From assembly GCF_046105845.1 (NCBI RefSeq), contig NZ_CP151004.1: DNA of 64,000 nucleotides; one strand, given 5' to 3'. Made by a program: the position numbers and the translations under genes. Shown here piece after piece: positions 35,913-36,532 of the stretch; positions within the stretch are counted from its first letter, which is position 1, and each line of letters begins with the position of its first letter. A model generated the notes under the pieces. The model saw nothing but the letters and a program-made list of their open reading frames with translations. It was not told the DNA's origin and did no database searches. Source of the stretch: Escherichia coli. Lineage in GTDB: Bacteria; Pseudomonadota; Gammaproteobacteria; Enterobacterales; Enterobacteriaceae.

Positions 35913-36532
35913 GGCACGGGCTGCTGGCGCTGATTTGCTGGCTGTGTTGTGTTGTTGCCCATAGCGAAATGCTGAATGTCGAACAATCCGGGCTGTTTCG
36001 CGCCTGGTTTGTACGCATTGCACAGGAACAGCTCCGCCAGGGGCCAAGTCCGCGCTGGTATCAGCAGGATTGTGCGGGCCTGGTGCGATTTTCGGCGAAC
36101 GAGGCGCTGAAAATTCACGACAGCAAATGGCTAAAAAGTAACGGCATAGCAAGTCAGTATTTGCCGCCTGAAATGACGCTAACACCTGAACAGCGTCAAC
36201 TGGCGCAAAACTGGAATCAGGGGAACGGAAAAACCGGCCCCTATGTGACCGCGATTAATTTGATTCAATATAACAGCCAGTTCATTGGCCAGGACATAAA
36301 CCAGGCGCTGCCTGGCGATATGATTTTTTTCGATCAGGGCGATGCCCAGCACTTAATGGTCTGGATGGGGCGTTACGTCATCTACCACACCGGAAGCGCC
36401 ACGAAAACTGACAACGGAATGCGCGCAGTCAGTCTGCAACAACTTATGACATGGAAGGACACCCGATGGATACCCAACGATTCCAATCCCAATTTCATTG
36501 GCATTTATCGTTTAAATTTTCTGGCGCGATAG
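35909..36532 (+). CDS. yfaT: DUF1175-family protein YfaT
   Basis: ATG at 35909 overlaps the yfaA stop (ATGA); 207 aa with an N-terminal hydrophobic segment. Confidence 0.75.

Follow-up and report, generated by a model that had tools for sequence, protein, structure and literature searches.

A conserved start codon for the α2-macroglobulin gene yfaS probably lies inside the 3′ end of yfaT in Escherichia coli

In Pseudomonas aeruginosa, the magABCDEF operon encodes a DUF1175 protein (MagC) followed by the α2-macroglobulin (A2M) MagD, which is periplasmic and bound to the inner membrane through MagB; a signal peptide is predicted for it, and a lipobox is absent (PMC3735191, PMC5764988). In this bacterium, a role in envelope defence has been attributed to the Mag/Yfa α2-macroglobulin system. 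Here we analyze the orthologous genes yfaT and yfaS, which have the same pairing and order (DUF1175/MagC, then A2M/MagD), in a 64,000-nucleotide (nt) stretch of the Escherichia coli contig NZ_CP151004.1 (hereafter, the window). From the sequence and its conservation, we consider it quite likely that yfaS starts at ATG 36466, inside yfaT, by means of the Shine-Dalgarno (SD) sequence GGAAGGA, that its product is a Sec precursor, and that this start is ancient and conserved, the ATGA start of its relatives having decayed in Escherichia. The resulting 67-nt overlap appears to be genuine and conserved, and it is ordinary in kind: a downstream initiation region embedded in an upstream gene is a known feature and not a new mechanism.

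Pseudomonas homologues are 68–76% identical to YfaT and 61–66% identical over the first 300 mature residues of YfaS. The two systems share an A2M without thioester, its periplasmic location and a cleavable signal peptide (export of YfaS being predicted). We compared the junctions of P. panipatensis, P. citronellolis, P. nitroreducens and P. otitidis, as stand-ins for that of P. aeruginosa, and found an identical internal GGAAGGA-N6-ATG block. However, most Pseudomonas pairs also have an ATG fused to the magC stop, whereas the window has ATA there and would depend on the internal start. Classical 4-nt ATGA overlaps, such as yfaA-yfaT, resemble this locus in their co-directional genes and logic of coupled expression, and the ancestral yfaT-yfaS junction was of that type; in contrast, the present overlap is 67 nt long, has its own strong SD, and has a start that does not touch the stop. 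Long out-of-phase overlaps of phages and viruses likewise place an SD and start in the codons of another gene, fix rare codons, and leave a trough of synonymous variation. At yfaT/yfaS, however, the constraint is visible in the initiation region only, not over the whole overlapped peptide, and the overlapped part of yfaS would encode the dispensable n-region of a signal peptide rather than a segment of the mature protein. Finally, the type I α2-macroglobulin lipoprotein YfhM (ECAM) shares superfamily domains (MG, A2M) and a periplasmic location with YfaS, but differs in its genuine lipobox, its CLEQ thioester and its pairing with pbpC; YfaS has neither motif and lies in a yfaA-T-S-Q-P operon. 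In the literature searched, we found no description of an internal start in magC, of a two-start arrangement, or of a probably truncated RefSeq YfaS.

The features of the junction are collected in Table 1. According to the first-pass annotation of this DNA, ATG 36466 opens a 67-nt, out-of-frame overlap with the 3′ end of yfaT; our analysis of open reading frames (ORFs) reproduced these coordinates, counting to the last base of the stop, and put yfaS in the −1 frame. In the yfaS frame, the nearest upstream stop is at 36409 and is followed by five candidate starts: ATG 36451, ATG 36466, the non-canonical ATA 36529, TTG 36541 and GTG 36556. Thus, ATG 36466 is not the only ATG for a full-length YfaS, as had been claimed, since ATG 36451 is in frame and open 15 nt further upstream; the earlier survey overlooked both this codon and the degenerate ancestral start, now ATA. 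The TTG and GTG that it named do exist, and the products from both lack a signal peptide. ATG 36466, a canonical start codon, is the only one of the five with a real SD (anti-SD duplex, −5.5 kcal/mol), and the spacing of 6 nt lies within the 5–9 nt criterion. The corresponding duplexes were +1.3 (ATG 36451), −1.5 (ATA 36529), −1.5 (TTG 36541) and +0.6 kcal/mol (GTG 36556). Local structure was −7.8 kcal/mol around ATG 36466 versus −19.6 and −23.5 kcal/mol around the TTG and GTG, respectively. A stable stem-loop occupies about 36533–36580, in the signal-peptide-coding region after the yfaT stop (minimum free energy, MFE, −23.5 kcal/mol for 36526–36585), and contains GTG 36556. YfaT, which matched Pfam PF06672 at 3.6e-58, keeps its C-terminus to the final residue in 24 diverse homologues, and so the yfaT stop is genuine.

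Table 1. Coordinates of genes, candidate starts and initiation signals at the yfaT/yfaS junction of the window.
Feature	Coordinates	Strand	Details
yfaT (MagC orthologue, DUF1175/NlpC-P60-like)	35909..36532	+	207 amino acids (aa); stop TAG 36530-32; from translation and Pfam PF06672
Near-invariant nucleotide block, putative yfaS translation initiation region	36440..36475	+	CAA CTT ATG ACA TGG AAG GAC ACC CGA TGG ATA CCC; yfaT codons −30 to −19
Alternative in-frame ATG	36451..36453	+	82-nt overlap; no SD
Shine-Dalgarno GGAAGGA	36453..36459	+	6 nt (CACCCG) before ATG 36466; built from yfaT codons W-K-D (TGG AAG GAC)
yfaS (MagD orthologue, type II bacterial α2-macroglobulin), proposed true start	36466..41070	+	1534 aa; ORF and Pfam domains
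Predicted Sec (signal peptidase I) signal peptide, 38 residues	36466..36579	+	n-region M1-K17, h-region F18-L35, c-region A-N-A
Out-of-frame overlap, 67 nt	36466..36532	+	yfaS frame −1 (+2/−1) over the last 22 yfaT codons and stop
ATAG, degenerate relic of ancestral ATGA	36529..36532	+	codon 22 (ATA) in the long precursor of YfaS
TTG candidate start (rejected)	36541..36543	+	no SD; energies in text
GTG candidate start used by RefSeq/PGAP (rejected)	36556..36558	+	no SD; energies in text

The internal start is conserved wherever the two genes are neighbours. Loci were taken from one genome per species for 80 best-matching species genomes (nearly all Pseudomonas, with few Enterobacterales), and six more were reached via individual proteins; we call a locus adjacent when the A2M gene directly follows yfaT/magC (n = 86). 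The −67 start is ATG in 85 of the 86 adjacent loci and GTG in the other (L086), GGAAGGA is present in 83/86, and no stop interrupts the reading frame between −67 and the mature protein in any of the 86. When the yfaT alignment was scanned in 22-codon windows, only the last two (from codons −24 and −23), which span the overlap, were stop-free in every locus. A second in-frame ATG, fused to the yfaT stop as ATGA and without an SD, occurs in 74/86; the leaders that it gives are ordinary (19–35 residues in the loci examined). For Aeromonas cavernicola and Chania, the gene calls stored with the loci begin at −67. L086 (GCA_031408455.1, 3106–3320) has a leader of about 50 residues after its ATGA, with repeated M-N-S/E-I-S motifs before the hydrophobic core.

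In Candidatus Methylobacter oryzae, by comparison, the A2M gene lies 223 nt after yfaT, and the block reads AAA GAT ACC CGC TGG, with neither SD nor ATG; both are gone in loci of this type, in which the A2M gene lies 223–289 nt downstream. For counter-examples, we scanned all metagenome contigs with the pattern TGGAANGAYACNCGBTGGATHCC, which has a non-A base at the key site. Eight of the 11 stretches recovered were magC homologues: four have CGG, which makes the start GTG, and keep both SD and ATGA; one is of the Methylobacter type, non-adjacent with a 289-nt spacer; the remaining three are considered below. No adjacent locus without both starts was found in these contigs. One magC lineage (L094, L099 and L100), without internal SD or ATG, reads TGG AAA GAC ACG CGT TGG ATT and keeps ATGA (CCA TGA TG…), and its contigs end a few bases later.

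The synonymous sites of yfaT show a local constraint. The A of the −67 ATG is the free third base of a yfaT Arg codon preceding Trp, and in high-G+C (Pseudomonas-type) genes this codon is CGA in 73/73, versus a background of 1.3% elsewhere in the same genes. Of such genes, 65/65 have ACA for the Thr that precedes the other Trp (background, 3.9%), 67/73 have ATA for the Ile after Trp (1.3%), and 73/73 have AAG for the Lys of the SD. Low-G+C genes (enterics and Aeromonas) have AAG for this Lys in 8/8, though AAA makes up 72% of their background, and the −67 Arg codon is CGA in 10 and CGG in one. In a sliding window, the ratio of observed to expected synonymous differences fell to 0.11 at codons −30 to −19, versus 0.67 gene-wide and at least 0.47 elsewhere, and this is the sole deep trough of synonymous variation in yfaT. 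Shared ancestry cannot explain the trough, because the same sequences give both trough and background. Constraint is visible in the initiation region and not in the amino-acid sequence of the encoded extension. Among six Escherichia sequences, there are 2 variable sites in the 100 nt before the yfaT stop versus about 18 in the next 58 nt.

YfaS matched PF01835 (MG2), PF07703 (bait-region domain), PF00207 (A2M) and PF17973 (bacterial MG10) above the Pfam cut-offs. Its 1534 residues contain no CxEQ thioester motif (Cys occurs at 25 and 1189 only), and this absence together with the domain set assigns it to the MagD-type (type II) bacterial macroglobulins. NCBIfam models matched neither YfaT nor YfaS. 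By a heuristic based on hydropathy and pattern, mature YfaS is predicted to start at DDS (36580), after ANA. By the same heuristic, a charged n-region, an 18-residue h-region and A-x-A are obtained only from starts 36466 or 36451; TTG 36541 and GTG 36556 leave 13 and 8 residues before DD, respectively, and neither of these leaders is charged. The mature YfaS of all orthologues aligns from the residue right after A-x-A, with 94–99.7% identity over the first 300 mature residues across Escherichia loci.

The first-pass annotation had also pointed to a putative signal/lipobox region in SGAIAAC. The residues are there (19–25 from ATG 36466), but a lipobox is not supported. ‘IAAC’ matches a loose four-residue pattern only, and a stricter PROSITE PS51257-type pattern (six uncharged residues, then [LIVMFWSTAG]x2-[LIVMFYSTAGCQ]-[AGS]-C), is matched by none of the five candidate N-termini, K17 falling in the stretch reserved for uncharged residues. 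Leaders from Salmonella, Superficieibacter and most Pseudomonas have no Cys at this position, and the hydrophobic core runs on past C25. The lipoprotein (signal peptidase II) reading was rejected on these grounds. A Tat signal, for which an S/T-R-R-x-F-L-K-like motif should immediately precede the h-region, was rejected as well: the window has DTQRFQS without RR, and the RR of Pseudomonas leaders lies 15–20 residues before the h-region.

The ATGA overlap is present at yfaA/yfaT and absent at yfaT/yfaS in the window. Across the adjacent loci, it is missing from 12/86, in several independent lineages. Escherichia has ATAG at this position, Superficieibacter ATAA or ATAG, and Salmonella enterica, P. 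flavescens and one Pseudomonas metagenome-assembled genome ATAA; CTGA is found in P. schmalbachii, P. jinjuensis, Enterobacillus and its relative. By these sequences, the proximal start was lost several times. In every ATGA-less lineage inspected, the −67 ATG is still present and the leader intact; P. schmalbachii (L019), like E. coli, has no other start able to give a leader. A change of Leu CTG to TTA (36512–36517, codons −6/−5, TTA AAT) is synonymous in yfaT; in the yfaS frame it replaces Glu with Lys, so that a positive charge immediately precedes the hydrophobic core (…FKFSGA…). The change is common to Escherichia, Superficieibacter and Salmonella (L006, L007, L085), the enteric genera without ATGA, and this yfaT-silent substitution looks like an adaptation of the long signal peptide.

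At the same place, T TTA AAT (36511–36517) forms an X XXY YYZ heptamer in the yfaT frame, and a ribosome slipping by −1 at this point would continue in the yfaS frame. The site reads T TTA AAC in Salmonella, CGA CTG AAC in Pseudomonas and C TTA AAT in Superficieibacter. We rejected a −1 frameshift yielding a YfaT-YfaS fusion, as the heptamer is not conserved and the nearest strong hairpin lies about 28 nt downstream, compared with the 5–9 nt expected of a stimulatory structure; the heptamer is probably due to chance.

From these observations, we infer that yfaS initiates at 36466, together with the export of its product by Sec and the site of cleavage. Ribosomes would bind GGAAGGA within the 3′ end of yfaT and initiate at ATG 36466, producing a Sec-type signal peptide of 38 residues whose n-region is coded in the overlap and whose h-region straddles the yfaT stop. 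The precursor would then be exported by Sec and cut after ANA to give a periplasmic type II α2-macroglobulin. Selection on synonymous sites of yfaT would keep the internal start in almost all magC-magD/yfaT-yfaS pairs of Gammaproteobacteria. In relatives with ATGA, ribosomes terminating on yfaT could also reinitiate there, in a termination-reinitiation arrangement. In Escherichia, the proximal start decayed from ATGA through ATAA to ATAG, which would leave the internal start as the only remaining export-competent one. Both starts give the same mature protein, and this would explain why either can be lost.

Several observations weigh against this proposal. The signal-peptide call is a heuristic, and a 17-residue n-region is unusually long. 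Signal peptides predicted for MagD in the literature have 21–26 residues, a length that presupposes a start at ATGA in P. aeruginosa. The literature searched contained neither an experimentally mapped N-terminus nor start-site profiling for any precursor of YfaS or MagD. Between the initiation block and the yfaT stop, the synonymous ratio is an ordinary 0.56–0.81. The loci are phylogenetically related, and raw counts such as 73/73 overstate their independence, with the rest of the gene serving as internal control. The last yfaT codon is CGA or CAA in 70/73 Pseudomonas genes, so that ATGA itself is selected there and the internal start may be secondary in that genus. Three of the eight non-A magC homologues have CGT together with AAA, having lost the internal SD and ATG and kept ATGA. 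Finally, most of the region is present in 5,197 genomes, and in the three E. coli genomes sampled from these (96.5–99.5% identity to the window), RefSeq, through the Prokaryotic Genome Annotation Pipeline (PGAP), begins the A2M gene at the equivalent of GTG 36556, giving 1504 aa and no overlap; yfaT both starts and ends there as it does in the window. The longer start that the first-pass annotation took to be the annotated one is thus a matter of source: the 1534-aa form from ATG 36466 is, we presume, an older annotation model. Querying with the N-terminal 150 residues of the long precursor recovered protein fragments alone.

Of the two possibilities that the first-pass annotation had left open, an unusually long overlap and a downstream start with a shorter N-terminus, the former is favoured by the SD, by the conservation of rare codons, by the frame open in 86/86 adjacent loci and by the need for a signal peptide. 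For RefSeq to be right, yfaS would have to start at GTG 36556 (or TTG 36541) without overlap, and the upstream ATGs would be by-products of conserved yfaT Trp codons. PGAP uses that GTG in the three genomes, long same-strand overlaps are often annotation errors, and the upstream ATGs do come from xxA-TGG codon pairs. Yet both downstream codons lack an SD (+0.6 and −1.5 kcal/mol for GTG and TTG, respectively) and are buried in structure (−23.5 and −19.6 kcal/mol), and neither is conserved: GTG 36556 is GCG in E. albertii, and TTG 36541 is CTG in E. whittamii and E. albertii. Their products would have no signal peptide, although the family is periplasmic (PMC3735191). The by-product idea fares no better, in that the A is a free synonymous site and yet a codon of 1.3% usage stands there in 73/73 genes. 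We regard this reading as highly improbable, and the shorter, non-overlapping RefSeq start in E. coli genomes is probably wrong. N-terminal proteomics would set apart the downstream starts alone, as cleavage gives one and the same mature protein from every upstream start. We also give little credence to (re)initiation at ATA 36529, the relic of ATGA, by ribosomes terminating on yfaT. This position is homologous to an ATG used or annotated in 74/86 relatives, the 17-residue leader would retain a 13-residue hydrophobic core and A-x-A, and the near-cognate AUA does initiate at a low level in E. coli. However, AUA initiates very poorly (at about 1% of the AUG level or below), this one has no SD, and its leader has no positive charge. 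Furthermore, the residues after the ATA in Salmonella and Superficieibacter are charged and polar (TRYR, SRQPFSR) and could serve in an n-region only if the start lay upstream.

A start at ATG 36451, which would add MEGHP to the precursor, is equally hard to credit. The codon is in frame, open and found in most loci, and its Thr codon is fixed as ACA in 65/65, but it lacks an SD, with GGAAGGA lying downstream of it, and CTG or GTG replaces it in at least six loci where the −67 start persists (L059, L061, L083, L084, L085 and L086). Nor does it seem at all likely that the block is some other signal (for example, a CsrA/RsmA site, an RNA hairpin or a pause at rare codons of YfaT), with the yfaS of Escherichia poorly translated and decaying. 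In favour of such a signal, yfaS is presumably a pseudogene in E. coli K-12, there are three A(N)GGA motifs in ACAUGGAAGGACACCCGAUGGAUA, and MagD synthesis is under RsmA control (PMC3735191). In several species, moreover, the MFE fold is a hairpin in which the SD and AUG pair with yfaT codons −12 to −3. As a selected feature, this SD/AUG-masking hairpin was rejected: it is no stabler than synonymous randomizations (mean z versus synonymously randomized 3′ arms, −0.05), ranging from −29.7 kcal/mol and z = −5.3 in P. panipatensis to an insignificant z = +0.26 in E. coli, and RNAalifold gave only −8.3 kcal/mol and 2 covarying pairs. Any relation between hairpin strength and the presence of ATGA is confounded by G+C content. 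A pause should preserve codon rarity, and not ATG/GTG identity, yet the sole substitution seen alongside a retained SD is CGG, which makes GTG. As for decay, the 1534-codon ORF is intact in the window, and the mature protein is as well conserved within Escherichia as given above. An RsmA site on the SD would, in any case, still imply a start site.

The start at ATG 36466 leaves room for regulation. It is conceivable, though we think it rather unlikely, that the GGA-rich block ACAUGGAAGGACACCCGAUGGAUA is a control point at which internal ribosome entry is switched by CsrA/RsmA or by yfaT-translating ribosomes that unfold the mRNA. If so, the α2-macroglobulin could be made in an amount different from that of the upstream Mag/Yfa proteins, and the two starts could yield long and short precursors with different export kinetics. 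RsmA shuts off MagD synthesis and has been published to bind the magA leader (PMC3735191); a further site for RsmA/CsrA in the yfaT block is only a possibility. Folding analyses found no supported presentation of GGA in a hairpin loop, and an Rfam scan of 36200–36800 returned nothing relevant.

The choice of start affects how the protein is understood and handled. The RefSeq start removes the signal peptide, so that YfaS looks cytoplasmic; if this gene model is general, localization predictions, proteomics databases and expression constructs would be misled. An internal initiation region bears on how MagD levels are set, and it affects the design of magC deletions, in which loss of the 3′ end of magC would remove the internal start. 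The locus also serves as an example of comparative analysis of synonymous sites telling a genuine long overlap from a mis-called start. In evolutionary terms, a gene whose coupled ATGA was lost would have survived by resorting to an in-frame start that already existed upstream.

The window matches 5,394 complete E. coli genomes at 95–99% identity, and its YfaT shares 97% identity with the E. whittamii protein. At the yfaA/yfaT junction (35909–35912), the ATG of yfaT overlaps the yfaA stop as ATGA. At the other end of yfaS, the stop TAA directly adjoins GTG 41071 (41068–41073), the first start codon of the next ORF, which we take to be yfaQ. Both junctions are tight, and among these operon junctions only yfaT/yfaS has a long overlap. 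The order yfaA (DUF2138), yfaT (DUF1175), A2M was found in the window and in every locus fetched, and the patchy distribution of the yfa/mag operon fits horizontal transfer of the whole operon.

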